In this document: one piece after another, positions 6,812 through 56,143 of the stretch
How the letters are laid out: every line of letters starts with the position of its first letter
Position numbering within the stretch: position 1 is the first letter of the stretch
Source: Malacoraja senta
Taxonomy: Eukaryota
Assembly (NCBI GenBank): GCA_038087875.1
Contig: CM075992.1
Location: forward strand, 7,814,001 to 7,878,000
Direction of reading: 5' to 3'
DNA: 64,000 bases
The notes under the pieces: model-generated
Seen by the model: the letters and a program-made list of their open reading frames with translations, nothing else
Told to the model about the DNA's origin: nothing
Database searches by the model: none
Translations under genes and position numbers: made by a program

Positions 6812-6980
6812 GGAGAAACTCAGCGGGTGCAGCAGCATCTATGGAGCGAAGGAAATAGGCAACGTTTCGGCCCGAAACGTTGCCAATTTCCTTCGCTCCA
6901 TAGATGCTGCTGCACCCGTTGAGTTTCTCCAGCATTTTTGTCTACCTTCGATTTTCCAGCATCTGCAGTTCCTTCTTAAA
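6812..6980 (+). mobile_element. Penelope-like element end fragment, fold-back insertion
   Basis: Near-perfect palindrome 6812-6930 plus tail; 14-bp TSD TAAAATATTGAGCA at 6798-6811 and 6981-6994. Confidence 0.85.
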
Positions 6981-11036: not shown

Positions 11037-11599
11037 GATCACAAATGTGGGAGGAAAATGTCTAGCAGTACCAGTATAAGGCAACTAAGGGTGGGCAATA
11101 AATGCAATTGATCAAGTAGAAAATATTTTGCTGTCTACACAATGACTGCTGGCCTAGAAATGTCTCCACTGTGTTTTTTTTATATGTTAAAAACAGCAGG
11201 GTGGGTCTCCCTAATATTGTTCAAGGAAGCAACTGGGAGAGTGAGATCTTCTAATACAAAAGTCATGGAACAACATTGTTGGGTCTTGTTATGTAATAGC
11301 ATGTTGAAATTGACGTGTCTATTTTGGCATAACCTTCCCGACTACATTATTGCCAGCCCTTGAGGCAAATCATCACAGCACCCGTGTCCTTTGCAGTGAA
11401 CTCTTAAAACAACAGTTCCAGTTAGCAGATTGCGGGTAATGAATGGATCGAAGGATGATAAGGCCGGAGGGGGTAGGAGTGTGCTTCAAGCAGGGCAGAG
11501 GAATCCGCATAGTTTGACGATTGATATTGGCTGCAGAATGCATGCTCTGTGGAAGGGAGACTCCAGGGCCGTGGTAAAACACACCTGGCAGAAGAGCTT

Positions 11600-11803
11600 A
11601 AGAAAGAACTGCTGATGCTGGAAAATCGAAGTTAGACACAAAATGCTGGAGTAACTCAGCGGGTGAGGCAGCATCTATGGAGAGAAGGAATTGGCGACGT
11701 TTCGGGTCGGAGTCTGAAGAAGGGCCTTGACCCGAAACGTCGCCAATTCCTTCTCTCCATAGATGCTGCCTCACCCGCTGAGTTACTCCAGCATTTTGTG
11801 TCT
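11600..11803. mobile_element. Penelope-like fold-back insertion containing a hammerhead ribozyme core
   Basis: Minus copy 11600-11710 plus plus-strand copy 11711-11803; 17-bp TSD ACCTGGCAGAAGAGCTT at 11583-11599 and 11804-11820. Confidence 0.85.
11711..11745 (+). ncRNA. Minimal type I hammerhead ribozyme motif (Penelope-associated)
   Basis: CTGAAGA-A-GGG(ccttga)CCC-GAAA-CGTC: intact CUGANGA and GAAA boxes, short stem II, palindromic ACGT stem III, GUC cleavage triplet. Confidence 0.7.
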
Positions 11804-12284
11804 ACCTGGCAGAAGAGCTTGCCAGGCAGATATATTTAAGATCATGAAGATAACTGCACTTTGGGGAAAGTCTGCGATTCTGACAAATTCCTTGTCCATT
11901 CTGTCTTCTCCAGTAAAGTAAAAGTAGACAAAGTCTCCACCCTGTGAAATGGTTTTGGTATTTCCTACGCAGCAGTGAACAGCAAATGGTGACATGTGGC
12001 AAAGTCAGCACCTACAGTCGGGGTGGAAGTCCAGAGTGCCTGAGACCTGAATTCTACTGGAGATAGTACGAGGTCACAGATCTAAGTGATAACAATGAAG
12101 AATGGATTTTGTTGCTACATATACCAGAGTTTAGGAAGAAAAGAGTTAATAAAACGTGCTGATCAGTGAGTAAATAGGAACTGTTGTTTCTTAGACTGTT
12201 GATGTAGTAAAATCATATTGCAGATGTATCTTCCTTGTGGCACCATGATAGACATTAGAAGTTTGCACCACATAAAAGAGTTAA

Positions 12285-12610
12285 AGGGCATGTTCCACTT
12301 ACGTGATTTTTTCAGCGACTTGCCAGCACCTGTCATAGTCGCAGCAGATCGCCGAAAATTTTCGAAATGTTGAAAATCCACCAGCGACCAGAAAAAGGTT
12401 TGACTCTTTGGGCGACTACTCACCACCAAACAGGCGTCACCCATGTCGACACGTGACGCCTGTTTGGTCGTGAGTAGTCGCCTAAAGAGTCGTACCTTTT
12501 TCTGGTCACCGCTGGATTTTCAACATTCAGAACATTTTCGGCAACCTGCTGCGACCATGACGGGTGCCGGCAAATCGCCGAAAACCCCCCACGAAAGTGG
12601 GGCAGGCCCT
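12285..12610. mobile_element. Palindromic MITE, PIF/Harbinger-like
   Basis: Whole element is an imperfect inverted repeat; AGGGC...GCCCT termini; TAA/TTA flanks; same family as 30427-30963. Confidence 0.85.
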
Positions 12611-12704
12611 TTAAGGAGAAGGAAATTACTGGCAAAATTGAGATCAACAGAAATGTACATGTCATTGTTTTACCCTGGGTTAATCCAATTTTCAATTAAA
12701 CAGT

Positions 12705-12900
12705 GGAGACACAAGAAACTAGCATCTAGATTTTTAAAAAGGCTGCTAGAGGAACTGAGCGGGTCAGGTAGCATCTGTAGTGGGAGATGGACAGTCCTCG
12801 TTTCAGGTCAAGACTCTTCATCTGCTTGTCCGGTTGAAGGATCTCAACACAAAATATTAACTACACAGATGCTGCCTGACCTGCTGTGTTCCCACAATAT
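12705..12900. mobile_element. Old Penelope-like fold-back remnant
   Basis: Degenerate GGAACTGAGCGGGTCAGGTAGCATCTGT...ACAGATGCTGCCTGACCTGCTG inverted pair. Confidence 0.6.
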
Positions 12901-13044
12901 CAACTGAATCGACATTTCAAAGACATTGGCCGAACTCAGGAACTTTGGGATGTTCAGGCATGTGATGAGACTATATTTACACACAGTGCTTTACTTTTTG
13001 TACTTAAAAATAGACATCATATTAAAAATAGACATCATATTGTC

Positions 13045-13365
13045 GTAGAGACAAACAACATGAAACAGGTCATTCAGCCCACCAAGTCCACGCTAATCAT
13101 CAATCACCCATTTACACTAATCCTACATTAATCATATTTTTTTATTCATCCCACATTTGCATGAATTCCCCAAAGATTCTATCTCTCACCTACACTAGGG
13201 GCAATTAATAGTGGCTAATTAAATTACCACTGCAAATCTTTAGGATCTGGGAGTAAACCAGAGCTCTCAGAGTAAACCCATGCAATCTCAGAGAGAATGT
13301 GACACACGTGTGCCCTCACATACAGAACCTGAGGTCAAGATTGACTCTACCCTATGCCACTGTGT
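13045..13365 (-). mobile_element. Degenerate HE1-like V-SINE
   Basis: Diverged match to the younger copies at 16262 and 34097. Confidence 0.6.
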
Positions 13366-13547
13366 TTTATTATCACTAAGTGATAATATTTGTTCCTTAC
13401 AAAATGCCTTTGAAAAAGAATAGTGTAATATAAACGAAGTCTGTAATTATAGAAAATATCACATTTTTTACCTAACGAATGACATTATGCTTCAGAATAT
13501 GATCGAAGGTAAAATAAGTGCAGTGGAAGTTACCAGTTTAGTGGAGA

Positions 13548-13640
13548 TGGACAAAAATGCTGAAGAAACTCAGTGGGTGAGGCAGCATCTATGGAGCGAA
13601 GGAATAGGTGACGTTTTGGGTCGAGACCCTTCTTCAGACT
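13548..13640 (-). mobile_element. Short Penelope-derived insert, hammerhead core mutated (GAAA to AAAA)
   Basis: 14-bp TSD CAGTTTAGTGGAGA at 13534-13547 and 13641-13654. Confidence 0.85.
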
Positions 13641-16261
13641 CAGTTTAGTGGAGAGGTATTTCCCACTGCTTTATAAAATGTTGCGATTCGAAAGCAATTA
13701 AACTACAGTAAAGATGAATCAAAAGACCAGAAGATTTGTACTAGTCTTGAATCAACTTTTTTTTTAAATAAAGCAGCAACGTTATCAAGTCTTTTTTATA
13801 TTTGCTGTATATTTATCTTCTGTATATTTACATGCATAATATTCATTCTTTAGTCAAGATTATGCAGAACACTACTATTAATTAACAGTTATTTTCAAGT
13901 AGATCTGAAAATCCTTATGAAAAATTCCTATCCATATGATAGGTCATTAATTTGCATACTTATGCAAATAAGATAGCAATTAAGAACTTGCACTTCTTAG
14001 CATCTTCCATTTAAATTTTAAAATCAGTGGCAGAGTTTAACCCTGATAGTTTAAAGGCATTTTATTTTTTTATTTTAAAATAGAGTTAGGCATAACAGAG
14101 ACAGTATTTGGCACAAAGAACATAGAGATCTAGCTCTCTGTCGATCTTCATCTCCATTTGCGAGCACATTTACAGCAGATATTTAAATACTGATGCCTAA
14201 TAAAACAATTCATTTGGGCATCTCAGAGACAGTATAAAATCACAGTCAGCGTCACAGCAAGCTGTAGAGGAGTTCATTTTGTTCCAATTCATTTCAAAAA
14301 CAGTAGCAATTTTCAAGTCGACATCCCATGGGACAGTGGTACCACACAGAGATGTACTTAAATAGGCTTCCTTCTTAGAATTCTTTGCATTACAGACAAA
14401 TTTCCCAATCTACAAAGCTATCAGGGAGTCTGGTGGGAGTTGGCATGTACGTGATCAGACAGGCAAAGAGGATAGGTAGCATTCTCAAACCAATTTTTCT
14501 TTAGGTGAATCTATCTTTCTATTTATTTATTAAATTAGTTTAGTCAGCTAAAATGCAAAGTACAACGTTTTCCCAGTGCATTTGTGAGTCTGGTGCATCT
14601 TGTGCACTGTAATCTTCTTACGCTGGCTTGTAGCCACACCATAACAACTTATTTCATCGGTGTATTACGTTACATCTTTTAGACCAGCAAGCAGCTCAGA
14701 TTTTAAATAAATAGAAACTTATTTCTAAACCAATGTAAACGTTTCACAGAATATAACACACAGCAAAACAAAATTACAAAATAATTTAGCCCTCTGCTGC
14801 ATTATAGAAGGACGATTTCTTGCCACCGGCTGAAAGTCCCTAGTTTTGGTTAATTTAAATATCCGTATTTTGACTAACCATGGTATTTCCTTCAAGTTAT
14901 TAAAAATTGTAATGTTCACTGTCGCTGGAAATAATACACCTATTCTAAATGGAAATGAAGGTACAGATGCCTGAAACACCGCAGTAGAAATAGAAATTAA
15001 ACTTCAGCAACTACAGGTCCCCGATCTTGCGCAATTTAAAGTACAAATGATGTCAATTTATAGTATTTCAGATGCTGAATTGCACAGTTCTGTGTTTGTT
15101 GCATGCATAAATGGGAAGTACACAGTGATGATTTATAAGGAGGGGGAGGGGGGGGGGGGGGGGAATAGCAGAGGAATTAAATACTTTCACGGAAGAAAGC
15201 ACAAAAAATGTCCTAGAAATGCTGGGGCACCAGGAATCCAGTGCAAATGAGGAGAAAAAACTCAGTACATCCTTTCCTGCATTTACGAAAGGGACATATC
15301 TTGTAAAACGTTTTGCTAAGCAAAATTTCTTGAACCTAAAAGACTGGATGAAATGTACGATGGGAATTTTGGTACAATTTGTATGCATTCAGAGAAGAAC
15401 ACTATTTATTTTAGCCCCAAATAGCTTAAAGACATGTATCTCAGAATCAATGGCATTTGAAGATTATCTGTATCCATATGTAAAACTATAGTTGAAGTTA
15501 ATGAACCTGAAAACCAGTAAATCCCAAGGATCTGATGATCTACGTACTAGTGTTGGGAAAACTTGCCTTTAGGGATAATATATGCTCTCGTTCATTAGCA
15601 AAAGGAAAACCAAGTTGGACGAAGCGTTTATGAGGATGTACCGTGTGGAGTAGGTAGGAAAACCATTTTGTGTGATGTATTTGGCTACCACCAGCTCATA
15701 TCCTTTATTAAACTCCATGTAGACAACATCCATTGCCCCACCCTTACCAATCCTTGCATCCATTGCCCCACCCTTGCATTCTTAAAAAACGAAATCAAAT
15801 TTGCGAGAAAGAGACTAAAAATTACTAGTAAACTGCTGGAAGACAAATTGTCAGGTTGCAGTGACACCCGGCAAACCCAACACACAGTAATTCACAAAAG
15901 CCTAAGGCTGCATGATTATCACCAGCAGCTTGACATCACCCATCAGACATTACATCATTATAAAAACATTTTTCTCTTTCTTTCAGACAAATTTCAACTG
16001 ATCTTGAATTCAAATACTTCTCTCGCTTCACTTTCCTTTGACCCCCATCTTTTCCCCCAGTATCATCCTACCCACCCCTTTGGTCTAATCTCACGACCTC
16101 TTCTGACCTCCCATTCTCTAATTCAGCAGAGATCCCAGCTTCATCGGCCTATGACTGTGTCTGTGTCTGAATAAATTCCTAGCCTGAATCTGGATCTGGA
16201 TGTGGTACGCTGAAAAGCTCTAAGTAGAGCATCACGCAGCACTGAACAATTTTTTTTTTAC

Positions 16262-17699: not shown

Positions 17700-18150
17700 G
17701 GCACAAGAGACAGCAGATGCTAGAATCTTGAACAGAAAACAAATTGCTGGAGGAACTCATCTGTGGAGGGAAACAGACAGTTGTGGCGGCACCTGGTGGT
17801 AGGCCACGGGCAGAGCGAACCCTCGGCTCTGGAGGGAGGAGTTTGGTGTCTCGGTGTGGGAGGCGCAGGTCACGGGGGTTGACCCATAGGGGTATTTAAG
17901 GTCGGGCAACGCCCGTGCCCATTTGAGGAGTAGGGAGCTGTATCTTACCGATTAAACCACGTCTCAAGCACACAACTTGTGTCCGCTTCGTTTTTGGCTG
18001 GACTCCTACGAGTCCCTGCTATACAGGCAATATTTTGGGCTGGGACCCTTCTCCAGGCTGATGGAAGAAGCTGGGAGATGGAGGTAAGTGGGGCAAGAAC
18101 TGGCAAGATTTCAGGTAAAGAAGGATGATTGGCAGGTGGATGGAAATGGT
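17700..18150 (-). mobile_element. Old Penelope-like fragment split by an LTR-like insert
   Basis: Penelope end sequence resumes on both sides of 17782-18023. Confidence 0.6.
17782..18023 (+). mobile_element. Probable solo LTR (Gypsy-like)
   Basis: TGTGGC...GCTATA ends, CAGT/CAGG flanks, internal TATTTAA and ATTAAA; cleanly interrupts an older repeat. Confidence 0.55.
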
Positions 18151-18795
18151 GACAATATTTGAAGCCAAAATGGAGTCAAAATAGGTGCAGATGTACAATT
18201 TGATAAGGCAGGAAGATGGGGAATAAAATGTAAAATCAGATGGATTGTAAATGGAAGGGAACGGGGGAGGGAGAAGAGGTTGAAAATGGGGGACAGAGAA
18301 GGGAAGGGAGGGAGAGGAGGGGATGGAAAAAGCAAAACAAACAGGGTGACGGGGTGGAGGGGGTAATGGTAAAAAAGATTTGCACGCGTGGGGAACGCAT
18401 AACAATTTCAGGTAATTACCATTTATTTTCTCTTCACACATCTTTCTGTTTCAATTTGATTCTTTTTATTCTCTTGGCTCTACCTGTCAGTTTTAAATAA
18501 TTGTTACCATGACAACTTTTGGCCCGTACCCTATCACAAACATTCCCTCTATTTTATCCACCTCACCCCTCTCTACAATTTACAATATTCTTGTTTTCTC
18601 ATTTTTTCCATTTCTGATGAAAAGTCTTCCATGGATTCTGCTTAACCTGCCGAGTGCTCCCAGCATTTCTATTTTTATTTCGAATTTATAGCATCTGGAG
18701 TTTTTTGCTCCAGACATTACATCATGTTGGGTCAATGTGTGTGAATGGAATTGGCCACCACTTCCACACAGGAAAGGATGGGCCCCAAGCTCTTT

Positions 18796-20325: not shown

Positions 20326-22048
20326 ACCACCAGCGGCGCCGGGGAGATGGCAGCCCTGCCGGCAGTCTGTTCGTTTTTTCATCTTTTTTGTTATTTTTAG
20401 CGTTTGTTAAAAGTTTGATTTAATGTACTTTGCTTTGTTTTATGTGGGGGGAGGGGGGGGGGAGATCGGGGGAAACTTTTTATCAGGTTCTTACCTTCCC
20501 GGAGATGTGATAAATTTTTCGGATCACATTCTCCGGGCTCTGTGGCCTAACATCGCTGGAGCCGGAGGCCTCCTCGGACTTAACAATGGAGCGGATCCCT
20601 TGCCTCGGATCGCTCCCACCGCGGACTGCGGACTTACCGTCAAGGGCTCGCAGTCTCGGGAGAGGCTAGTCGGGAGCTCCAACGCCGCAGAAGGTTCGAC
20701 CAGCCCCGATGCAAAGTTCGATCGCCCGGCGCGGGGGAGCTGACAACCCCCCGATGCAGGAGCTGAACGCCTTGACGCGGAGGGCCCAAACGCCGCTGGC
20801 TACGGGTGTCAAGACCGTCCCGTCAACGGAGGGCTCGAGGCCCCCGACCGAGGAAGAAAAAGGAAGGACTTTAACTTTATTTTGCCTTCCATCACAGTGA
20901 GGAATGTGTAGGAGTCACTGTGGTGGATGTTCATGTTAAAATGTGTTTTTGAGTCTGTTGTAGGTATGTTACAAAACTTACCTTCAGTCGCGCTGTAATT
21001 CTGCCACTGGCAGTGTGCGCGATTTTGGCGCCTTTAAGGGGGGGCGGGGTTAAAACCCGGGTTTCTCCTCCCTTGTCCTGGTTAATATTTTGTTGGAGTA
21101 CAAGCCTTGGCTGACAAATCGTTCCTAGCGGCGTTTTGTGAATTTTTTATTTTTATTAAATCGTCAATGTCAGCGCTAGAGTAATTTTAAAAGCAGCTCC
21201 TGAAGCGTCAACGCCGATAATGGGGACGGATTTCACACACGGGACAGGTAAACGAAAGTGGTTTCTTTAAATGTATAAAAGTGCTTCTTAAGAAGCCTTT
21301 AATTCACATTTTTCCATGCGACACGGTGATTTTATTCACCGCAAATGAACGTTCCAAAAGATCGCGTTCCAGAAAATCCTCACACAAGATGATTTAAATG
21401 CCCATTAATTTACAGGTATTAAACATTCAATTCCTTCCATTTGGCCTGTAAATTCATGAAAATTAGATTTAAAAATTATGTTATATTGTGAATTATTGTG
21501 TGAATGTTATTTGGACACTTAGGCTATTTAAAAATGTTAATTTATTCTTAAGAAATTGATAGATGTTTAGATCTAGTAATTGAATTTTGTAATTAGCTAC
21601 AATTAGGTAACTAACTAATTATATGCTTTACTTTCATGTCTTCGAAGTAAGATTGTTTCATATTTGTTTCAGAATGCTTCAATCTATAATAACTGAAAAT
21701 TTCTTTCAGTTATCATAATTTTTAAGAAAGTTATGGGCTTTTAACTGTCCTCGATCACAGCTTTTGTGTTAAGTCAATGGAAAAGCAATAGCGAACTAGA
21801 TGCTAATTTCTGAGTATGATAATGGCCATAACTTTTTTAATACTGAAGATATGAAAGTGAATTAAGTGTCAAATTAAACTTCTTTTTATGCTTTATCTGA
21901 TGGGATAAATTGCAGACTTTATTTTTAAAATCTCAAAATTTTGTAACATTGCTATCTGTTGCTTTTAATTGTATGACTGGCATGGCCAGTGAAATTCCTC
22001 GTATGCTGCAAAACATACTTGGCGAATAAAATCTGATTCTGATTCTGA
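20326..22048 (+). mobile_element. GC-rich non-autonomous retroposon, copy C, interrupted by a DNA transposon
   Basis: Colinear with 2188-2939; (ATTCTG)n tail. Confidence 0.75.
20961..21954. mobile_element. Non-autonomous DNA transposon with TAG...CTA termini
   Basis: TIR TAGGTATGTTACAAAA / TTTTGTAACATTGCTA; TCTGTTG duplicated at 20954-20960 and 21955-21961. Confidence 0.8.
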
Positions 22049-25639: not shown

Positions 25640-25815
25640 ATGCAAAATGCTGGAGTAACTCAACTGATTACGCAACATCTCTGGAGGACATGTATATGCA
25701 ATATTTTGTGTCGGGACCCTCCTTCAGACCAAAGGAGGGGGGGAGAAGGCTGGAAAAGAGATGCGAGGGTGGGACAAAGCCTGGCAAGTGATAGGTGGAT
25801 ACAGGTGAGGGGGCT
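25640..25815 (-). mobile_element. Penelope-like 3' region with decayed hammerhead motif
   Basis: AAAATGCTGGAGTAACTCA...GGGACCCTCCTTCAGAC followed by a purine-rich tract. Confidence 0.65.
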
Positions 25816-26783: not shown

Positions 26784-27435
26784 AGCTCTGTCTCACGGTG
26801 TTGCGGTCATCGGCGGTGAAGCGCGGCTTCGCCTGTAGAGGGGACCGCACAGCAACGGCGAGAGCGCCGAGCCTATGCCACGGGAGCGCCGCACGGGTGC
26901 CGAGTGATTTAAATACGGCTGGTCCCACGAGCTTGCGGTAAGTAAAAAAAAAGGGCGGGCCGACTGCGATGACGTCATTTTGGATCTGCGGGGCTGTGGC
27001 GGCGGCCGTGCTGATCGCGGCGCTGTAGCGGTGGCTGTGGCGGCGGCCATGCCGCACACGTGACTCACACGTGACTCACTAGCGGCGGCTGTGGCGGCGG
27101 CTGTGCTGAACGCGGCGCTGTAGCGGTGGCTGTGGCGGCGGCCATGCCGCACACGTGCCTCACTGGCGGAGGCTGTGGCGGTGCAAGTTCGACACACGGC
27201 GCTCGTGCCACACTGGCGGCGGCTGTGCCGCACTCATGCCTCACTGGCGGAGGCTGTGCGGTAGGGACATATTTTTGAACAGTGTTGGTTTTATTTTAGC
27301 ACCGTGCGGTGTTGGGAACAACACCGCACGGCCCCGGAATTGTGCGTTTGACCGAGTGCGTGGTCTATGGCGGCCCAGGAGCGGTAGATTCTTCCTGTTT
27401 CGCCGCCAATGACCACAGACTCGTGAGACAGGCCT
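26784..27435. mobile_element. PIF/Harbinger-like non-autonomous element with internal GC-rich tandem repeats
   Basis: AGCTCTGTCTCACG / CGTGAGACAGGCCT termini; repeated GGCTGTGGCGGCGGCC units. Confidence 0.7.
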
Positions 27436-29514: not shown

Positions 29515-30426
29515 TTACTAAACATTTCCACAGTCTTCAAATGCACAAAAAATAAATTCATCCAGCTTTGCCACTTTTCTCTTAGTAACCTTTATATGCT
29601 CCGGGCTCATTCCTAGTCAACAGGCAGGCAAGGCAGACAACCATGCGCTTACTGTTCTGCCAAGACAACAAAAAGTTATTTTAAATGTGTACTCCTGTTC
29701 AGTCATCAGCAAGTCTTTCTGCAATTAACACATGATCCATATTTTTTTTAAATGAAGCACTATAAATGTTTAACTACTTCAACTAACACATATTTATTGA
29801 GGTTATATTCATGTTAGGTCTGTGCAGCCTTATTTTTATGACAGCTTTCAAATTGGCACGCACAGCTGTGAGGTCAGCATCCAGAGAATATGTTTAATTA
29901 CACATTTGCATTGGAGTTATTAGAGGCAACAGTTCAACAAAGTTAATAGCAAATTAGAAACATAAACAAAATAGGGTTTTGCACCACCAGAGTAACCAAT
30001 CTTTTTTCATCCATAATTCTAACAGCTGCAAAAGTGCAGAAGCAGTTCTGTTTTTGATCAGTCCTGGCAGCTGAATGTCTGAAAAATTCATGGGGCATTC
30101 AAAGCTATTCTCCGTTGACCTTGACAGCCATCACGCCCCATACTTTTAAAATGGCTATTCTATTCTAAACACTGCTGTTATACAAGTATCCTGACATGAA
30201 TCAATATTACTGCATAATAAACATTTTACTTTGGAAAACTATAAACACAATAAATCATCCTGCTGTCAACTAAAGAGACGAAAACTCTTCCGAATTCTTT
30301 CATGAGAAAAGAATGAACTTGTATTTATCAGCACCATAGCATACGTGCAATACATCGACAACACTTTGCCATCAAAAAAATTATGTTGTTTATCCACTGT
30401 TATAACAACTAATTTGTGCACAGTAA

Positions 30427-30963
30427 TGGGCCTGTCCCACTTACGCGATTTTTCTCGGCGACTGCCGGCACCCGTCATAGGTCGTGTGCAGGTCGGCGAA
30501 AATGTTCAACATGTTGAAAATCCAGCGGCGACCAGAAAGACGCTACGACTCTTTGGGCGACTGAGGAGACGACTCACGACCATACAGGGCGACTCCCTGG
30601 CAATATATTTTATATTTACATTATCCTTGAATAAATAACAGGTTTAATAGTGTAGACTATAATAGGAGCTACTTTCTCCTCTGAAAGATTAGTTCAGTTC
30701 AACACGATTCTTGATTAGAAGGTTCTGAGTTCATGAACTAATCTTAGACATTGGTTCACTGCAGTAATGATGATATGTTGTATTGATGTTAAACCTGGCG
30801 GGTGAAGCCTGTATGGTCGTGAGCAGTCGCCCAAAGAGTCGTACCTTGTTCTGGTCGCCGCTGGATTTTCAACATGTTGAAAATTTTTCGGCGACCTGCA
30901 ACGACCTATGGACGGGGGGCCGGCAGTCACCGAAAAAATTTGCGTAAAAGTGGGACAGGCCCA
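30427..30963. mobile_element. Palindromic PIF/Harbinger-like MITE carrying a captured host segment
   Basis: TGGGCCTGTCCCACTT TIRs, TAA TSD; apex contains insert 30602-30795. Confidence 0.9.
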
Positions 30964-31552
30964 TAAAGCTCTCCAAACCAAACATAAATGCAAAAACTGC
31001 AGATATTAGAAATCCGAAATCAAAACAAAAAATGCTGAATGTACAAGAGACTTACAGTTGCTGGAATCTGGAACCAAAAATAAATTGCTGGAGGAACTCA
31101 AATATCAGACAGCATCTTTGCAGAGAGAAATAATGTTCTGTTGGAAGGTCATTAACTTACATTAACTTTGTTTTTCTCTCCAGAGTTCTGCCTGACCTGC
31201 TGAGCATCTCCACGTGCCTTTGATTCTTATTTCATATTAGAATAATACCTTGCTTTTGATGCTGCTGATTGAGGAAGTATTGTTGGCTGGCCTAAAGGCC
31301 AGGAAGGAGAGTGGACGGAAAGTTCTACCTGATCTTAAGAACAGGTAGACTGGCCTTGGTTTAACATCAATACAACATATCATCATTACTGCAGTGAACC
31401 AATGTCTAAGATTAGTTCATGAACTCAGAACCTTCTAAATCAAGAATCGTGTTGAACTGAACTAATCTTTCAGAGGAGAAAGTAGCTCCTATTATAGTCT
31501 ACACTATTAAACCTGTTATTTATTCAAGGATAATGTAAATATAAAATATATT
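30602..31552. repeat. Inverted duplication: 30602-30795 equals reverse complement of 31358-31552
   Basis: Direct comparison shows only one 1-nt indel. Confidence 0.95.
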
Positions 31553-31933: not shown

Positions 31934-32280
31934 TTGAAGAAGAGTCTTAACCCAAAACATCACCTATTCTTTTTCTCTGCCTCAGAGGGCGATGGAGGCC
32001 GGTTCTCTGGATACTTTCAAGAGAGAGCTAGATAGCGTTCTTAAAGATAGGGGATATGGGGAGAAGGCAGGAACGGGGTACTGATTGGGGATGATCACCA
32101 TGATCAGCCATGATCACATTGAATGGCAGTGCTGGCTTGAAGGGCCGAATGGTCTACTCCTGCACCTATTGTCTATTGTCTCTATTGTCTATTGTCAGAG
32201 ACGCTGCCTGATCCGCTGAGTTACTCCAGCATTTTGTATCTATCTTCAGTGTAAACCAGCATCAGCAGTTCCCTTCCCAC
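31934..32280 (+). mobile_element. Penelope-like end split by a CR1 3' end (about 31977-32195)
   Basis: Penelope sequence resumes after the (CTATTGT)n CR1 tail. Confidence 0.75.
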
Positions 32281-32294
32281 ACAATCCCACACAA

Positions 32295-32928: not shown

Positions 32929-34096
32929 TTACATATAAATAAGAGAAAAGAAAAATCAGCCAGGCATGATTCCTTTTCATGACAAACTAGGTCAAGAACT
33001 AGCCAGTATTTGTCATTCAGGAATAACGGAAGTAAAGCTACATGGAAGTTCTTTTGAACTGTAAGTAAATTCAAACAGATTCCACCAGTGTGAGAATCAC
33101 AGCTTCCAGGAAAGGTTAGCAAAAGCAAAATTTAGAATGAAGATAGGCTGAGAATGGATGGAGGAGAAAGGTCCATCAGCTACCAGAAAAAGTGCCAGCA
33201 TTGTTCTCGGAAACAAATGCCACTGGGAAAAAGAACACTATATGAAGATTTCAAGTCAGCCTGCCTTCGTAAATATATTCACGCATGTCAGATTAGTACC
33301 CTCACGATGCAACAGAAAAATAGAATTTCTGATTAATAACCTTAAAACCTACGTTGTACTTTCACAATTTTATGCAAATTCTTGTTTTTTATTTTTAGAT
33401 GTTGATGAGTGGATGGCAACTATTAACAGTGCATTTTAGAGGTCAATAAAATTCAGTAGCAGATGGGCCAATTGAAAATAGCATGAATTAATTTTTTACT
33501 GTTTAATTCCTGTGTTTCATGACATCTCTTTAACCTTTCCTATCAATACAGGCCAAAACAATTACTTGAGCATAAAAAGCAAAGTAATTTAGCAAAGCAA
33601 TTGCATTTTACCAACTAAAGCAGCTGGAAAATTCCCATTCCACCCTCTAGAATTTTTTTTATATGTAAGAACGTTTAGTTTAGCAAGAAATCAATGTGCT
33701 AATAGGAAAATACATAGGTTTAAAATGATTTTTTAATAGATTCATTTGTTTATTGGACGTAAATATTCACAGAATGAAGAAATGTGAACAAATTGTCCGA
33801 GTTGTAGTTAAACAATTCACAATTATGTTGCATTTTCCTTTGCAGACTGCTTTTAATACAGCTTAGTGAACAAAGCAATCGGTCAGGTGTGTGCCATAAG
33901 GGAGATACCAGTAGATTAGAAATAGGCTGGAATTATAATTAATGTTCTTATTCAGTTGATGAGCTATTAAAGACCAATTAGTTTTACTTCATAATAGTAT
34001 AAAATAATCGAATTCATTATTAAGAGCAAACAACAATGCTGCAAAATCCATCTTATAGAAACACAAACCTAAGCAACTGTGCAACATTAAAATTTC

Positions 34097-34407
34097 GGGG
34101 CGGCACAGTGGTGAAGCTACTGTGTTGTTGCCTTTCAACGCCAGAGACCAGGGTTCGATACTGACTTGGGTGCTATCTGTACGGAGTTTGTATGTTCTCC
34201 CTGTGATCTGCGTGGGTTTTCTCTGAGATCTTCGGTTTCCTCTCACACTCCAAAGAAATACAGGTTTGTAGGTTATTTGACTTGGTATAAACATAAATTG
34301 TCCCAAGTGCGTGTGGGATAGTGCGAGTGTGCGGGAAACCCTGGTCGGTGCAGACTTGCTGGGCCGTAGGGCCTGTTTTGCGCTGTATCTCTAAACTAAA
34401 CTAAAAA
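34097..34407 (+). mobile_element. Full-length HE1-like V-SINE
   Basis: tRNA-like head with GGTTCGATACT B box, V domain, CR1-derived tail, (CTAAA)n. Confidence 0.9.
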
Positions 34408-34677
34408 GGTACAGCATGGAAATAGGCCCTGCAGTCCATGCCATCCATCAAGCTTTTCATACTAGGCCTACCTTTACTCAGCAGTAACAACTCAACCTAA
34501 TTGTGGCAGTTGAACATTATTCATTAAAACTTACAAAAAATACTCCACAGAAAATATTATTAATTAGACTCGGCAGCACAAAACTTTGGTTTACATTTTT
34601 TTTTAATGACTAATGGGTGTAGAAGGACAGGTTAGAAACGTAATATCACGGTGCAGTGATAATACTGGACTCTACTG

Positions 34678-34925
34678 GGAGTGAGTGCGGTCCTGACCTC
34701 CCATCTACCTCATTGGAGACCTTTAAACTATCCTTAATAGGACTTTATCAGGCTGCATTGTTATATCTTGAACTAAACGTTGTATCCTTTATCTGTGCAC
34801 TGTGGGTGGCTTGATTGTATTCATGTATAGTCTTTTCTTTGACTGGATTGCACGCAAACAAAAGCTTTTCACTGTACCTCGGTACACATGACAATAATGA
34901 ACCAAACTAAACTAAAACTAAACTA
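34678..34925 (+). mobile_element. Rex1/Babar-type 3' UTR fragment
   Basis: Matches the 3' UTR at 39580-39818; (CTAAA)n tail. Confidence 0.7.
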
Positions 34926-36149
34926 CTGCTGTTTCTGAACTGCTGGTCCACTGAACTGGACTCTGATACAATACAATACAATTTGATCACATTTCTAGAT
35001 GCCAAATGATATGTCACTGAAGAGCCATCCAGACATTACAACAAACAAATGAATGTCATGCAACTGCGCAATAAAGCATGTTACAAGGAAAAATGGACAA
35101 CACACTTATTCCATGATTGGCTATAAAACAATACAAGGGATTAATCTTAAAGCAATCAAAGAATTTGGAAGATTTTCCTGTTAGTGTGTTCCTCCAATGC
35201 AAAGTAACTATCAATAGGAATTTGGGCAAGATAATCAAAATAGAAATGTCAAAGAAAATCATGATTAAGGTCATAAGTGATAGGAGAAGAATTAGGCCAT
35301 TCGCCCCATCTAGTCTACTCTGCTGTTAACTGAACAATGCTTTGATCAGACTGCATTATTCCAGTTGTTAAGAAACAAAATATTCTTGCACTAAAGGGAA
35401 TTCTTTGCTTTAGAGTTCAAAATTATGAGAAAAATCTTTAAGGAGTTTCCCTCGTCAACCTGAAAAAAGATGATTGTTTCTTTTTCCACAAATGCTACCT
35501 AACTTGCTGAGTGTTTCCAGTGTTTCTGTTTGTAATTGATATTTACAACATCTTCCGTTTTGGTTGTATTCCAGGAGACATGCAGACAAAAAGCACCATG
35601 AATTGGAATTTTGGGCATATTGACTCCCATGTTCCCAAAATATTCTGTGAAAAAAAAATTCCACAACACCCTACCTTACCAACAAATTTAAACTGATAAC
35701 CAAAAAAACAAGTGTTGGGGGAATTCAGTGGGTCAGGCAGCATCTGTGGAATGAAATGGATTGAGATGACGCTGCCAGTTGGGACCTTTCTTCAGACAGA
35801 TCAAATTGATAACATTTTATCATTAATTCCAAACCAGAAGTATATAATTTATCCCATTTCTTTATATAGGTAGATTTTCAAAAAACAATATCGTCCCTTA
35901 AGCTTTACTGGTGTCACAGTCCAGCACTTCAAGTCTTTCTTCATAATATGGTTTCAAACTCATGGCTTCATCTCAATACATCTCACTATAGCTTTAAGTA
36001 CCATGTACATTATTATATCCATGTACTCACTATAGCTTTATGCTATTTTTAGATTTGTGCAATTCAGTTGCACGCTACATTGTATCTGTGGCTTAATCAC
36101 TTAATTTAATTTCTACTACAGTCTTCTTTACATGATGTATAGATTCATG

Positions 36150-36637
36150 CTTCTTCTGCAGTTGTATAGGGCTCTGGTGAGACCACATCTGGAGTATTGT
36201 GTACAGTTTTGGTCTCCTAATTTGAGGAAGGACATCCTTGTGATTGAGGCAGTGCAGCGTAGGTTCACGAGATGGATCCCTTGGATGGCGGGACTGTCAT
36301 ATGAGGAAAGATTTGAAAAGACTAGGCTTGTATTGACTGGAGTTTAGAAGGATGAGGGGGGGTCTTATAGAAACATATAAAATTATAAAAGGACTGGACA
36401 AGCTAGATGCAGGAAAAATGTTCCCAATGTTGGGCGAGTCCAGAACCAGGGGCCAGAAGTCTTAGAATAAAGGGGAGGCCATTTAAGACTGAGGTGAGAA
36501 AAAACTTTTTCACACAGAGAGTTGTGAATTTGTGGAATTCCCTGCTACAGAGGGCAGTGGAGGCCAAATCACTGGATGGATTTAAGAGTGAGTTAGATAG
36601 AGCTCTAGGGGCTAGTGGAGTCAAGGGATATGGGGAT
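36150..36637 (+). mobile_element. CR1 (HER1-like) ORF2 C-terminal fragment
   Basis: LYRALVRPHLEYCVQFWSP...RRFTR...RKNFFTQRVVNLWNSL, frameshifted. Confidence 0.9.
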
Positions 36638-36638
36638 A

Positions 36639-36826
36639 TTAAATCAAAGGTAGACACAAAATGCTGGAGTAACTCAGCGGGACAGGCAGCATCTCTGGAG
36701 AGAAGGAATGGGTGACATATCGGGTCACCCATTCCTTCAATGCAGAGATGCTGCCTGTCCCGCTGAGTTACTCCAGCATTTTGTGTCTACCTTTGATTTA
36801 AACCAGCATCTGTAGTTCTTTCCTAC
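36639..36826 (+). mobile_element. Penelope-like fold-back insertion
   Basis: Palindrome 36639-36801 plus tail. Confidence 0.85.
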
Positions 36827-36829
36827 TCA

Positions 36830-37820
36830 AGACACACCAACACCTCTACTTCCTGAGAGAACTGAGGAAATTGGCATGTCGCCAGAGGCTCTTACAATCT
36901 TATACAAATGCACCATAAAAAGCATACTGTCGGGATACTTCACAGCTTGGTTTGAGAATACCCCTGCCCAACAGCGCAAGAATTTGCAAAGAGTTGTGGA
37001 TGTAGCCGAGTCCAGCACACAGACCTGACTGCCTCACATTGACTCTATCTATATTTCACGCTGCCTCAAAAAAAGCAGCAAATGTAATCAAAGACTTGTC
37101 CCAACAGCTATTTCTTCTTCTTCCGGCTCTCATCTAGCAGAAGATCGGGTAGATGCACAGAGTCTCTTGCCCAGAGTAGGGAATTGAGGACCAGAGGACA
37201 TAGGTTTAAGGTGAAGGGGAATAAATTCAATAGGAATCCAAGGAGTAACCTTTTCACACAAAGGGTGGTGGATGTATGGAACAAACTGCCAGAGGAGGTA
37301 GTTGAGGTTGGTTGAGATAGTTGAGGTTTAAGAAACAGTTAGACAGGTACATGGATAGGACAGGTTTGGAGTGATATGGACCAAGCGCAGGCAAGTGGGA
37401 CTAGTGTAGCTGGGACATTGTTGGCCGGTGTGGGCAAGTTGGGCCGAAGGACCTGCTTCCACACTGTATCACTCTATGACTATGACTAAGGCACAGAAGC
37501 TTGAAAGTGCACACATCAGACTATGGAACAGTTTCTTCCCCTCCGTTATCAGGCTTCGGAATGATCCTTCCATTTGCTAAAGAATTACTGTCCAATTCAC
37601 CTCTTCCCCATTGAGAACATTGGATTTTGTCTAAGGAAATAATGCACTACAATGCTGAGAACTATTTTCTGCACTCTGTATCTTCCCTTTTGTTCTATCT
37701 ATTGTACTTGAGTTTGGCCTGATTGTATGTGTAGTATATCTGAACTGTCTGGATAGTACGCAAAACAAAGCTTGTCACTGCATCCGGTACATGTGACAAT
37801 AATAAAACTAAACCTCAACC
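36830..37820 (+). mobile_element. Rex1/Babar-type fragment with nested CR1 3' end (about 37146-37488)
   Basis: LYFLRELRK.GMS...LQRVV motif; CR1 end with (ATGACT)n tail interrupts it. Confidence 0.8.
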
Positions 37821-37849
37821 TATCCACCTCTGCTAGAGTTGAGAGGTGA

Positions 37850-38190
37850 CAGCAGAGATTTACGAGGCACACAGATAAGGCGAATGATCACAGTCTTTTT
37901 CCCAGGGTAGGGGAATCTAAAACTAGAGGGCAGAGGTTTAAAGATATGAAAGATTTTAAGGAGACCCGAGGGGGTACTTTTTTTCCTCCCCACACAGTGA
38001 TGGGTACATGGAATGAGTTGTCAGAGGAAGTGGTAGAGGCGGGAACAAATAAAAACATTTGGACAGGGATAGGAAAGGTTTTTGCAGGATTTGGGGTAAA
38101 AATTTGTTTAGCTCAGATGGGCAATTTGGACAACATGGACATCCTAGAGGGATGGGCTGTTTCTGGTCTGTATAACCCCACAACTCTCAT
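37850..38190 (+). mobile_element. Degenerate CR1 3' fragment
   Basis: WNELSEEVVEAG motif and CR1-type 3' UTR. Confidence 0.7.
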
Positions 38191-38899
38191 GTGTCAAGAC
38201 CAGCCAATAAACCAAATACATTATTAAAAGATTCTGGATTAACACGCAGATAAAATCTCAATGGGCTGACTCTTCAACAGCTGCCACTGAAAGATAAGCT
38301 CTACCACTTGCCTGAAAATACACAAGATAACTTCTGTTTTATACCCCCACTCTATAATCCATCCACAGCAAATATTTAACAATGTATTAGACACCAATCT
38401 TGCCTTCAGCAGAGATTTCCTCCACCAATTGTTTTTGCAACAAACATGAAAACCCAACCAATAAACACCCATTCACAATAATCCTCCCACAAAAAGTGTT
38501 AGTGGAGAAGCTTGCGGCGATCATTATCAAAGCCATTGACAGGTGATAAAAAGGAGAGCAAATAGATAAGAAAATGTGATCAGTGAAAATGCAACTGAAC
38601 CATTTTGATCTCTTAACCATTGAAACACAACCTAAATGTGCTCTAGTTTAATTGTTTATTGGTATCTAATTGAGAGATATAAATATTTTATGTATCCACC
38701 TACAGCCCTTTTTGTTAACAAAAGAATATTGTACCGTTTGATGTAGAAATGACTCAATTTCAACTCCTTTAACACTCTCAGTTTTTATTATACAGCCACA
38801 GGGAGCGATTGAAAGTAGACCATCACACATCACGGAACAAATATAATTTATGTTAAAGTTCTGAAGGGATAAAATAAACTTTAACTTTCTCAGTGTGAA

Positions 38900-39818
38900 C
38901 CACCTTGTAAAATACGACACCACCGTAGTGGGCCAGATATCAAATAATGACGAGAAGGAGATTGAGACCCTCGTAACCTGGTGTCAAGACAACAACCTCT
39001 CCTTCAATGTCAACAAGACAAAGGAGAATGTAATCAATTTCAGGAAGCAAAGCAGTACCCACACCCCAGTATACATGGATGGTGCGGAAGTAGAGATGCT
39101 TGAAAGCCTCAAGTTCTTCGGAATAAATATCACCAGCCATTTGTTCTGGACCAGCCACATTTGAGCAATGGTCAAGAAAGCACACAAACACCTCTACTTC
39201 CTTCGAAGGTTTAGCCAGTTTGGCATGTCCCCTACAACTCCACTATTTGTACAGATGAGCTGTAGAAAGCATTTTATTGGGATGCATCACTACATGGTTT
39301 GGGAACAGCGACATCCAAGACTGCAAGAAGTTGCAGAGTTGTGGACATAGACCAGACTATCATGCAAACCTATCTCCCTTCCGTTGACACCATCTACACT
39401 TCACGCTGCCTCGGGAAAACTACCAGCATATTCAAGAACCAGTCCCACCGTGGTCACTCTCTCTTCTCCCCTCGCCCATCAGGCAACAGGTACAGAAGTT
39501 TGTAAACACATATCTCCAGATTCAGGGACAGTTTTTACCCAGCTGTTATCAGGCAACTGAACCATCCTCTCACCAACTCGAGTGTAGTCCTGACCTATCT
39601 ACCTCATTGGAGACCTTTGAACTATCTTTAATTGGAATTTATTGGACTTTATCTTGCATTAAACATTATAGCCTTTATCCTGTATCTGTACACTGTGGAC
39701 AGCTTGATTGTAATCATGTATAGATTTTTCACTAACTGGATCAGCGCAGACGTTAGTGCCACTGGTCGGTAGTCATTGAGCCACGTCACCTTACTCGTGA
39801 CAATACTAAACTAAACTA
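38900..39818 (+). mobile_element. Rex1/Babar-type LINE fragment
   Basis: DTTVVGQI...WCQDNNLSFNVNKTKE...KFFGINIT...LYFLRR...PSGNRYRSL; 3' UTR and tail. Confidence 0.85.
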
Positions 39819-40029
39819 TTTTCATTGTTTCTTCACCCTCATCTGCACTCTCAGAAACCCAACTGTTGTGGAGAACGAGACCAATCTGTTTAATTACTTT
39901 TGATGTTTCTACATCACCTATATTTACTCTTACCAAGCCCCCCCCCCCATCCCCCATTTACTGTGACTGTGGCTTTGAATCCAAGTTACTCTTTAGTTTC
40001 CCTTCCATCTCCCCCAATATCCTCTCTTA

Positions 40030-40172
40030 ACATCTAGACAGGTACATGAATAGGATAGATTTAGAGGGATATGGGCCAAACACAGGCAGGTGGGACTAGC
40101 TTAGAAGGAGCATATTGGTCAGTGTGGACAAGTTGGGCCGCAGGGCTTGTTTTTACGCTGTATGACTCCGAC
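40030..40172 (+). mobile_element. CR1 3' end
   Basis: GACAGGTACATG...GGGCCGCAGGGCTTGTTT...CTGTATGACTC. Confidence 0.75.
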
Positions 40173-40756
40173 TCATCTAGTCCATGAGACTCATCTTCTC
40201 CTTGAATGCTATTCAGCATTATAGATTATTCTTTCTGCTAACAGAAACATTTTTAAATATGTTCAAAAATATTTTCATTCCCGTGTCCACCCTTGCCACT
40301 GCAGCAAACCAAATCAAAACAGTAAAGACATTATCTTACTTTCTTTCACTGTTACACTATTCCCCCTTTAGTAGCAAATATTTTCACACACTGAAGTTAT
40401 TCAATCCATGACTGTACCAGCTGAAAAAATGAAACCCAGACTTATACCACTTTCAACAGTGTGCTATGTGGACTACCTTCCATAGTCCACATAGCCCAGC
40501 AGGTCACTGCTGCTCAAGAGCACAAGTACTTTTAAAATGCAATTTCAGCTTTTTGTCTCTACTTCCCATTCAGTGGGTTCTAACTTCCACCATCCAATGT
40601 AAAAAGATGTTTCTTCCTCTCCCTGCACTCTTCAATTGATTACTTTAAATCTATTGCTACTAGATTCTGTCCCTATTGCCAAGGGGGGGAGATCCCAACT
40701 ATTTACTCTATTTGGAACAGTTTTATACACCCCAATGCTGAAATCAGATAAATCGA

Positions 40757-41060: not shown

Positions 41061-41155
41061 ATATATATATCAGGGGTTGGTGTCAAAACTGAGAGAGCTT
41101 TTCACAGACTTGTCAAACAACATTCAGACTTGCCAGAAGCGTTCCGATCTGAAAG

Positions 41156-46519: not shown

Positions 46520-46603
46520 GGTAGACAAAAGTGCTGGAGAAACTCAGCGTCTATGGAGCGAAGGAGATAGGCAACGTTTCGGGCCGAAACCCTTCTTCAG
46601 ACT
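46520..46603 (-). mobile_element. Short Penelope-derived insert with intact hammerhead core
   Basis: Reverse complement AGT-CTGAAGA-A-GGG(tttcgg)CCC-GAAA-CGTT; 14-bp TSD TAAGAACTTTGCTA at 46506-46519 and 46623-46636. Confidence 0.85.
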
Positions 46604-49379
46604 TTGCTAAACTTTGACAAACTAAGAACTTTGCTAAATTGTTCTCTCAATACCTACAAATAATTATAGCTAAATGGAAGTCTCATTTAAAAAAAATTGT
46701 GTGGGAAGAAATTCTAGAAATTAAATCAAACCTGATATCATTTTTTAAAAAGCATGACAAAAAGAGCTCTGAGACAATAAAAATGGGTCCTTGGGCTTCA
46801 TCGGAAATTTGAAGCAAGCTTATTATAAATTCATTGTGCATGATGGACACGGGTGAGGTGTTGGTGAAGACAGGTATTTTTGCAACAAAAAAAAACTTTG
46901 GTGGATAGCGAAGCAAAAATTTCCAAAAGGGATCCTTAACATAAATTAAATTCCTAATTTGCATTCAAGTGCTTCGGGCATGTCTTAAGCATCCAATGGC
47001 AATGCCCAAAAAAAGAGACCCACAACTGAGCTGGATGCAGGCCACAATTACATTTATTTAGACTAATTTAAGATTGAAAAGACGGCACAATGCTTAATAT
47101 TTATTTTTAAAACACTTGCAATTATGAGAACTATTGAAAAATTACAATTGCAAACACATTGGATAAAGAAAGTGAGCTGCTGTAAACTTTAAAAATGTTT
47201 GCACTCAGATTTGGGGAGACATCAGCCAAATAATGTACTACCAATCTTTTGTAAATTATTGATTATTTTAGACAGTAATATGACAAATATCTTTGTAATG
47301 AGATAAGAAGCCAAATCTGACTGTTTGTAGTATATGAAAAACTGATAGACTTTAGTAGTCCCAGACTAGCAGATTTGTCAAAATATTGGGATGTTATAAC
47401 TATTAATATCTGAACACACTTTTATTTCACTTTTCTTTCACGTGTTACATGGTAGTATAATGAACTCTCCAGTGAACTCAGCAAGTTTAAAGAGACAAGG
47501 AAGCCTACAAGCTCTTAGGAGCCTGGCTCCCACCGCAAACCTACTAATTTTCCGAATGTCCAGTGTTCCAGATCCTAACCTCAGCTCTGCCTGCAATCTG
47601 GACCCCTGCTCATCTTCCAGAACAAGGAATGAGCCAGATGCCTAACCATAAGGGCTTCTGAAAAATCCAATGCCAAGTTATCAGAGTTTATAGTCCCTTG
47701 TTAACTTGCTCTGCAATAAACCACAGTTTTTAATGCAGTACCTATTATGAAGAATCATTTTGTATCACAACATAAATAATTACAGCAGAGTAGTTTCATC
47801 TATAAAGAGGGCACAGCAATCAAATGATGTGCATTTTCTTTCCCATGCTCCTGGTGGAGTTTCCAGATAAATCCAGCCTTCATCAACGAGGCTAGGATCC
47901 ATTGTCATTTAGTCATGAATATTTTGTGTTCTTCAGTAACATCACGCAGTTTCACCTCCACCATGATGCTTGTACTTATTGGCCGTCTTTAATATAGGAT
48001 GTTTGAGAAAATGCCATTTCACTCAGTGCCTTATGTTGCAATAGTAAGGTGGCGCAGATGGGAGTTGATGGTTACGTGCAAGAAAATAAATTGCATGGCT
48101 ACAGGCTTTTCTATATTGGAATAAGTTAGAAACAAAATGCATGAGGTTTTTCTGAAGCCAATATTCTCTAATTTAAAAGGGGTCATTGTAAAGGCTCACG
48201 CAGAGTGGCACAGCAAATCACACAGGACTCCATTCTATACATGAGTGGGGAGGCACAACATGGTAACTGTGCTCATCAATAACCATGAGTTCTGCTGCAT
48301 TATTCACGCTTTAAATCCTGCACTCAAATTAAAAGGAAAAAAGCAGAGCATTAAGGATCCCACACAATCCGACAAATAAAAATAAATAAGCATTTTGTTA
48401 CATGAGAACAGGAAAGTCCTTTTTTCTACAATACAGGGAAAGTGTGTCCCATTAATGGTTACACTTGGTGTTCCAGCTGTGTCAACTCCTTGTTTAAACT
48501 CGCAGAGTGCAGAATACATTAATGTTCTGTATGATACCAATCAGTCCTGTAGTTTTGTCACTTACAGATTTCAAACAAATCCCCTTGGATTTTTCTGACA
48601 CCAGCTGCAAGTTTATTGATGATAATATGGAAAAGTATCTGATCTGAGAATCAACGGCTGTGATAAATCTGTCATTTGAATTGGAAACAATTCCATTATC
48701 ATCACAAAATGAACACTAGTACAGTACTTCAGGATGCATATTAAAATCACAATCATCACCAATTTTTAAACTCAATTGTATTTAGGTCCAATTAATTTTT
48801 CGACAACTGATTAAATCTTGCAATAAACTGTTCAACTAAAATATCCATCTTTTCAGTTATGTTTATCATTTCAGAATTGTGCATTGAGCAGAAAGAACAT
48901 TCTGAAACACATAACTTAAGGATGTGCTCATTTTTGACAAACACGACTGAAATAAATTTCAACTCCAATGTCAAAAGCCTGATAGGATGTTCTTTTTATA
49001 AAAATGAACTTAGTAACGAATTTTAAGACAACAGAAGAAAATGCTGGAAATAACAGGTCAGGCCACAGCTGTGGGAGGAGAAACAGAATCAACATTTCAG
49101 TCAGTGATCCTTTGTCAGTCAAAAGACAAGAGTCATGACTATTTAATTGTCATATACTCTGGGAATGGAATAATGAAATTCTTACTTGCTGCAGTTTTAG
49201 AGGTCCATTAATGCAATAACACAATAAATAAATACACAATAATCAATAATACAATAAATTATCAATAATACTAGGTAACCAGACCATAATAGTGCAAACT
49301 GAAGCGCACAGTCCAAGCAAAACAAAGTCCACAGTAGATCTGCGACACAAAGAACTATATATGCTGTAATCTTCAGCAA

Positions 49380-49545
49380 AACAGAAAGTGATGGAGTAAC
49401 TCAGTGGATCTGGCAGCATCTGTGGAGGGAAGGGATGGGTGACTTTTCGTGTTAGGACCCTTTTTCAGACGGATTGTAGGATGGGGAGAAAGCTAGATAA
49501 AAAGAGGAGAGGGCAAGACAAAGCCTGGCAAGTGATAAGTGGCAA
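49380..49545 (-). mobile_element. Degenerate Penelope-like 3' region
   Basis: Similar to 25640-25815. Confidence 0.6.
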
Positions 49546-51600: not shown

Positions 51601-51665
51601 GCCTATTTCCTTCGCTCCATAGATGCTGCTGCACCCGCTGAGTTTCTCCAGCATTTTTGTCTACC
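51601..51665 (+). mobile_element. Short Penelope-derived insert truncated 3' of the hammerhead
   Basis: 11-bp TSD ATTGATTGAAT at 51573-51583 and 51666-51676; ends TGTCTACC. Confidence 0.8.
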
Positions 51666-56043: not shown

Positions 56044-56143
56044 TCATCAGTCTGAAGAAGGGTCTCGACACAAAACATCACCCATTCCTTCGCTCCATAG
56101 ATGCTGCCTCACCCGCTGTGTTTCTCCAGCATTTTTGTCTACC
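56044..56143 (+). mobile_element. Short Penelope-derived insert, hammerhead core mutated
   Basis: CATCAGTCTGAAGAAGGGTCTCGACACAAAAC...TGTCTACC. Confidence 0.8.

Follow-up and report, generated by a model that had tools for sequence, protein, structure and literature searches.

Penelope-like elements (PLEs) of the EN+ type (Penelope/Poseidon and Neptune) carry minimal hammerhead ribozymes, which Cervera and de la Peña characterised by an extra base after A9, a G10.1-C11.1 pair and a palindromic helix III (PMC4209133). These motifs are mostly single, probably derive from truncated PLEs and sometimes form pairs on opposite strands (PMC4209133). An optional tail of 30-40 nt and an adjacent inverted copy are standard features of the elements (PMC8557442). 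Transcription of PLEs starts in the pseudo-LTR (pLTR) from an Inr-containing internal promoter (PMC2377424; PMC8557442). In Penelope of D. virilis, a 46-nt first exon is followed by a 75-nt intron whose end adjoins the hammerhead, which puts the start about 120 nt upstream of that end (PMC4209133, PMC2377424). The insertion reaction has been described by Frangieh et al. for Poseidon of Anolis carolinensis (PAc). The reverse transcriptase (RT) has two neighbouring internal start sites on the RNA, one at either end of the tail, and requires about 55-60 nt of RNA downstream of its start; both strands of the DNA are nicked and extended, and the targets are AT-rich. Hammerhead mutants of PAc insert normally, no RNA reads begin at the cut, and uncleaved RNA is the dominant template (PMC11167929).

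Non-LTR retrozymes are tandem repeats of at least two hammerhead-bearing units with a cut-to-cut circular RNA, for which an origin from pLTRs has been proposed (PMC7229834; 10.64898/2026.07.22.740005). The metazoan members resemble the unit described here in being non-coding, pLTR-related and flanked by long target-site duplications (TSDs), and in carrying a type I hammerhead (PMC7229834). In L1 and SVA, an untemplated G at a fixed 5' end is an accepted sign of a copied cap (PMC4859970).

The window, by which we mean the whole stretch of 64,000 nucleotides analysed, has a G+C content of 41% and is rich in repeats. One repeat family, whose inverted arms are about 165 nt long and 78-85% alike, is found at 12277-12613, 30424-30588 and 30800-30972 and is possibly a MITE or another fold-back element. 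A dispersed repeat of about 670 nt (2188-2848 and 20327-20960, 83% alike) has no Pfam match. Two tandem repeats, GC-rich and of two copies each (95 and 89 nt), are located at 26988-27163 and 57082-57258, the latter with a short inverted copy at about 56813-56865. Among the 196 stop-to-stop frames of at least 72 aa, the one gene-like Pfam match is a short ALKBH8_N hit (PF09004, 10248-10538, + strand, E 1.1e-6), a model that often matches LINE ORF2 remnants.

The locus at 11711 had been read as a ~95-nt insert. It is part of one fold-back insertion of 207 nt (11600-11806), consisting of a tailed arm and a tail-less inverted arm. The 17-bp TSD (11583-11599 and 11804-11820) encloses the entire fold-back and not the ~95-nt arm alone.

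11583..11599, + strand: left TSD of 17 bp, of which the first 3 nt could, in the right copy, equally belong to the element end
11600..11709, - strand: tailed arm, with its 5' end in stem II and a 31-nt tail (11600-11630)
11710, + strand: extra G at the inversion junction, directly preceding AGTCTG; a candidate cap-derived G
11711..11806, + strand: inverted arm without a tail (the ~95-nt unit), whose first base is the A of AGTCTG
11714..11741, + strand: minimal type I hammerhead core (CUGAAGA, extra A, stem II, GAAA, palindromic ACGU, C17), with the cut predicted after 11741
11804..11820, + strand: right TSD

All six short inserts of the preliminary description are present in the window sequence as it had placed them, the other five being the following.

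13548..13640, - strand: tail-less unit starting at AGTCTG, with an adjoining 14-bp TSD (13534-13547, 13641-13654) and a mutated GAAA
42617..42710, + strand: tail-less unit starting inside the core with TGA microhomology; 12-bp TSD (42608-42619, 42711-42722)
46520..46603, - strand: tail-less unit with an intact core (46600) and a 12-nt internal deletion; 14-bp TSD (46506-46519, 46623-46636)
51601..51665, + strand: tail-less unit starting at the predicted cut; 11-bp TSD (51573-51583, 51666-51676)
56044..56143, + strand: tail-less unit in which 5 nt precede AGTCTG; initiator-like TCAGTCT at 56047-56053

The inserts are 88-92% identical to the 11711 copy over the shared 3' columns. A common 3' end, ...GTCTACC, is seen in five of the six; the 13548-13640 copy finishes ...TTTGTCCA, and the 42617-42710 copy carries 2 extra nt. 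The 5' ends are less uniform than had been thought: four of the six, and not five, start at or upstream of AGTCTGAAGA. AGTCTG is the start of the 11711, 13640(-) and 46603(-) copies, and the 56044 copy begins 5 nt upstream of it. The 42617 copy begins 4-7 nt downstream of AGTCTG, within the core and lacking C3, and its TSD overlaps the element by TGA. The 5' end of the 51601 copy is exactly the first base 3' of the predicted hammerhead cut. TSDs of 11-17 bp flank five of the six inserts, as first described, and none of 300 random positions yields a duplication of at least 11 bp. No TSD was found in the flanks of the 56044-56143 copy; both of its flank junctions are also present in a second organism (organism B), which dates the insertion to before the two organisms diverged. 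In two copies, target-like filler separates the TSD from the 5' end of the element (19 nt at 46604-46622, with AGT microhomology at the 5' end; 17 nt at 51584-51600). These fillers of 17-19 nt are rearranged target-site sequence, which suggests repeated annealing of the cDNA to the target.

A profile search of the window located 29 arms (none in the reversed control), among which there are five head-to-head pairs with gaps below 50 nt. Like the 11600-11709 arm, other arms carry the 31-nt tail, which is missing from all six short units. The copies outside the six are as follows.

6812..6980: fold-back insertion with a tailed + arm and a shorter - arm, joined via the self-complementary stem II region; 14-bp TSD
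36649..36825: fold-back pair; the 5' end of its + arm is no more than 3 nt from the predicted cut, with GTC microhomology; a TSD was sought and none was found
12737..12895: older fold-back pair
31077..31212: older fold-back pair within a 195-nt inverted repeat
17702..18400, - strand: older tailed copy split by a ~250-nt insertion
49345..49545, - strand: older tailed copy reaching at least ~70 nt upstream of the hammerhead
25643..25800, - strand: older copy that likewise reaches at least ~70 nt past the hammerhead on the upstream side; over 158 nt it is 73% alike to the copy at 49345

The inverted repeat around the 31077-31212 pair (30602-30795 and 31358-31552) has 99.5% identity between its arms, which lie about 560 nt apart. 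The insertion at 17780-18025 splits the old PLE end just past the hammerhead cut region. A further tailed PLE end (31935-31977 and 32196-32284) is split by a repeat of about 218 nt; it starts near TGAAGAAG, near the AGTCTG boundary, and the inserted repeat looks SINE-like, with relatives at 1818-2002, 44141-44367 and 49779-50013. The older copies continue upstream into pyrimidine-rich sequence, which makes the unit the end of something longer. In the 17702..18400 copy, this sequence extends for about 350 nt upstream of the hammerhead, a limit that is approximate, and is probably of element origin.

The RT and GIY-YIG domains have no Pfam match in any of the 196 frames, and the copies are too short to reach the ORF. 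The window contains no long copy, the kind in which a partial-tandem pLTR would stand upstream of a full-length element. As the RT/GIY-YIG ORF is not linkable to the unit in the window, membership of the PLEs rests on hallmarks, and these are present: the minimal type I hammerhead, an optional 3' tail within the 30-40 nt range (31 nt) and the adjacent inverted, 5'-truncated copy. The six inserts are genuine retrotransposed ends, and on these features the element from which they come looks Penelope-like. The repeat is of a kind typical of cartilaginous fishes. With EN+ PLEs the unit shares the mostly solo minimal hammerheads, the opposite-strand pairs, the tail and the TSDs (PMC8557442, PMC4209133); the combination of a tail on one arm only with opposite-strand pairs is like that of EN+ PLE inverted insertions (PMC8557442). 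Degenerate patterns made from the unit gave no match in viral contigs and none in metagenome contigs.

The hammerhead fits the published PLE anatomy, as had been proposed: CUGANGA, an extra base after A9 and before stem II, the G10.1-C11.1 pair and a palindromic 15.2-16.2 step in helix III are all found. Intact cores had been described at 11714(+) and 46600(-), and both are confirmed, with the qualification that stem II of the 11714 copy has 3 bp plus a C.A mismatch and that stem I is 2 bp long in both. Helix I has 4-5 bp in EN+ PLEs (PMC4209133) and in active minimal hammerheads, which are expected to cleave as dimers (2 bp in a D. virilis variant). Of 12 copies tested, 2 retain an intact core, and a hammerhead descriptor run over the whole window returned these two and one unrelated match at 15532. 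Stem II is 81% paired across the copies. The 2-bp stem I is paired in all seven copies that cover it, with one-sided changes only; no pair has changed on both sides, and no covariation measure exceeds shuffled controls. Rfam gave no family at gathering score across the window and no hammerhead model at E<=10 in 11550-13700. Some microRNA families matched below threshold at 11651-11787; these matches correspond to the fold-back hairpin and were rejected. Minimum-energy folds and homodimer cofolds gave no hammerhead shape and were not counted as evidence.

The 3' ends of the unit are explained by what is known of PAc. By analogy, the ends at ...GTCTACC and 31 nt further on fit directly the two internal RT starts that bound the tail, about 100-150 nt downstream of the hammerhead in both elements (PMC11167929). 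The common tail-less 3' end is therefore not new, since Frangieh et al. map it to an internal RT start (PMC11167929). AT-rich targets and, as proposed for the unit, priming on both strands and an uncleaved template are further points of likeness (PMC11167929). A CCAGCAT-like word is located upstream of both 3' ends in all five tailed arms examined and may set the two RT start sites. The tail, the inverted arm, the minimal hammerhead and the shared 3' end are thus published PLE features. The fixed 5' end just before the hammerhead is the one real regularity that is apparently unreported. In the text available for EN+ PLEs, 5' truncation is frequent and no sharp 5' end at this place is reported (PMC8557442, PMC4209133); the main text on PAc reports neither a transcription start nor a pile-up of 5' ends (PMC11167929). 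No such fixed end was found in the literature searched, most subscription papers and Repbase/Dfam lying outside its scope.

The 5' end was examined with contigs of four public runs aligned to the 56044 copy. Two runs (X1 and X2) come from the organism of the window, the third (X3) from a relative and the fourth (X23) from another relative; the last is tentatively taken to be RNA, and starts are not readable from its contigs. In each of X1-X3, 33,396-50,638 contigs aligned. The figures given are for six positions per run at which alignments break and a loose end follows; there are 784 further positions. At 56049 (A of AGTCTG) and 56050 (G), 316 and 314 of 5524 partly aligned contigs break in X1, 269 and 246 of 3839 in X2, and 471 and 442 of 7806 in X3, where 309 more break at 56051; in X23, 57 of 1005 break at 56049. 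Thus about 12-14% of the partly aligned contigs in X1-X3 break at the A or G of AGTCTG. Some of these may be contigs of other subfamilies clipped at 56049-56050, because the reference 56044 copy itself loses homology at about 56045-56047, 2-5 nt from the peak. The loose parts have the properties expected of unique flank, being long (median 203-255 nt), AT-rich and without a consensus (agreement 0.31-0.34). By contrast, the loose ends at 56047 (350, 296, 539 and 75 contigs in X1, X2, X3 and X23) have a pyrimidine-rich, element-like consensus, from which it follows that many copies continue upstream of the boundary. Contigs collapse shared sequence, so that these two classes give no ratio, and contig depth was used neither as copy number nor as a histogram of ends. 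Breaks at 56082 and 56085 were set aside as effects of subfamily or of reference mutations, their loose letters being element sequence (agreement 0.59-0.72).

The remaining positions average about 18, 12, 25 and 3 contigs (X1, X2, X3 and X23, the 784 positions being assumed to be evenly split). The cut position, 56080, is absent from the top six in every run; if these six are the best supported, no other position, 56080 included, exceeds 212, 102, 309 and 45 contigs, respectively. The main start is located about 30 nt upstream of the cut and is commoner than starts at the cut; cleavage by the ribozyme does not make the boundary. The same boundary recurs in at least two sequence subtypes. Many arms end elsewhere, and a clustering test confined to the window (P 0.001-0.03) has little weight, being post hoc and based on five arms. 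That the ends are not random, as first suggested, holds at the 5' side across the genome in the contig runs.

The fixed 5' end probably marks where the RNA of the element begins, that is, a candidate capped start at the 5' edge of the hammerhead. The ~95-nt units would then arise by run-off in the normal PLE retrotransposition cycle, with signals in the pLTR fixing both of their ends, a reading to which we give a probability of roughly 55%. Pol II would begin transcription within the pLTR, either at the A of TCAGTCT or at the G that follows it. With C3 3 nt downstream of that A, the ribozyme would lie at the very 5' end of the capped RNA. The GIY-YIG/RT protein would nick AT-rich DNA and start cDNA inside the RNA, as has been shown for another PLE. 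The start site that yields the tail-less end would lie about 95 nt from +1, and the one that yields the tailed end about 126 nt from it. An RT that starts in the 5' pLTR of an uncleaved transcript would reach the cap after about 95 nt, where often one base would be added before integration with a TSD of 11-17 bp. Priming from both nicks could produce the fold-backs, in which a single arm is tailed and the two arms meet at microhomology close to stem II, and a start in the 3' pLTR would lead to the longer copies that run on upstream. Hammerhead cleavage would be unnecessary in this cycle, and a minority of copies may derive from cleaved RNA. The 51601 copy, exactly at the cut, and the + arm of 36649..36825, within 3 nt of it, hint at occasional cleavage; one exact match among about 10 arms has, by our estimate, a chance of about one in ten.

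The letter that precedes the start is consistent with a copied cap. G is the commonest letter in five of seven cases (56049 in X1 and X2; 56050 in X1, X2 and X3), and A is the commonest at 56049 in X3 and X23. Given the base composition of the window, the chance of G being the leading letter is P 0.0006-0.01 for each of these five, X1 and X2 not being independent and the consensus letter alone being scored. At the 11711 arm a single extra G stands at the junction; in the 13640 copy the base before +1 is also G and is part of the TSD, which abuts AGTCTG directly. TCAGTCT fits the initiator consensus (YYANWYY matches at 1.2% of window positions), and no DPE-like word was seen at +28 to +32. Full-length L1 and SVA insertions have in common with the unit an extra G at a fixed 5' end and inversions with small indels at the junction; L1 primes at its 3' poly(A) end, whereas priming here would be internal and the "complete" product only about 95 nt long (PMC4859970). 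The start of D. virilis Penelope lies about 120 nt upstream and across an intron, and the geometry proposed here thus differs from that of the one mapped case. The start site of NbRZ1 is a loose analogy only.

The same capped start would serve a discrete, SINE-like non-autonomous unit, in which solo pLTR ends, probably tailed, are transcribed from +1 and mobilised in trans by the PLE protein; the source RNA alone distinguishes this from the run-off model. Because the start site and the RT start are both internal, such a unit would regenerate both of its ends in each cycle. The sharp ends on both sides in the contigs and the abundance of short copies with TSDs agree with it, as does the description of putatively non-autonomous PLE derivatives in Chlamydomonas (PMC8557442). 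We nevertheless regard it as doubtful: the same sequence continues upstream in the many contigs of the 56047 class, the boundary recurs across subtypes, and the tail-less copies lack the stretch of RNA that the anole PLE needs downstream of its RT start (PMC11167929).

A stop at the level of the DNA or of reverse transcription on a longer RNA, with no transcription start at the boundary, is an unlikely source of the 5' end. The stop could be due to protein-bound or folded RNA, to a template switch or to endonuclease resolution at CAGT. Microhomology and filler at several 5' junctions speak for it, and it has been proposed that PLE tails form through resolution by the endonuclease (PMC8557442). 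A stall would be expected on entering a structure, at its 3' side, and not after leaving it, and a stop leaves the excess of G unexplained.

The preliminary description had suggested a retrozyme-like unit or strong processing sites. In a retrozyme, tandem copies self-cleave as dimers, circularise and are reverse-transcribed. We consider a non-LTR retrozyme highly improbable. The window was searched for arrays in which two or more units with complete hammerheads stand in tandem, and none was found; nor is there any cut-to-cut or circularly permuted copy, the main 5' ends lying about 30 nt upstream of the cut and the 3' ends at the tail boundary. Retrozymes consist of tandem units (PMC7229834), whereas the copies here are scattered, singly or as fold-backs, and begin upstream of the cut. 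Together with the absence of 56080 from the leading break positions, the 2-bp stem I without two-sided covariation also argues against it. In its favour are the palindromic minimal hammerhead, the copies at or within 3 nt of the cut, and the derivation of retrozymes from pLTRs together with their occurrence in a chondrichthyan (10.64898/2026.07.22.740005). Head-to-tail joints (56143 back to 56047-56053) are seen in all four runs and are rare, those from 56143 to 56052/56053 being present in 10, 6, 13 and 2 contigs (X1, X2, X3 and X23). The joints could be ordinary partial tandems or seeds of retrozymes, and tandem dimers elsewhere in these genomes are possible. Other loci may qualify as retrozymes; these six copies do not. 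A splice acceptor (pyrimidine tract, CAG/TCTG) with copies made from spliced RNA, which the pyrimidine-rich upstream sequence ending in CAG and the D. virilis intron that ends at helix I (PMC4209133) would suit, is largely refuted by the lack of a shared first exon, by loose ends without a consensus and by the TSD that abuts AGTCTG in the 13640 copy.

The 5' boundary bears on the PLE transposition cycle and on the role of the hammerhead in it. Should the pile-up reflect a capped start, the transcription start of a vertebrate PLE would be placed to within 1-2 bases by thousands of genomic junctions. Most templates would then be uncleaved in vivo, a point so far made in vitro for one element, and solo minimal hammerheads would be short run-off products and not random truncations or retrozymes. 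A broader and rather speculative reading is that, in vertebrate PLEs, the hammerhead falls within the first 31 bases of the capped transcript, where cleavage would act as a decapping switch. On that same tentative reading, the ~125-nt pLTR end, with its start site and RT start both internal, would be a self-regenerating minimal Pol II non-autonomous element, and its tail-less ~95-nt daughters would account for the many solo minimal hammerheads of animal genomes.
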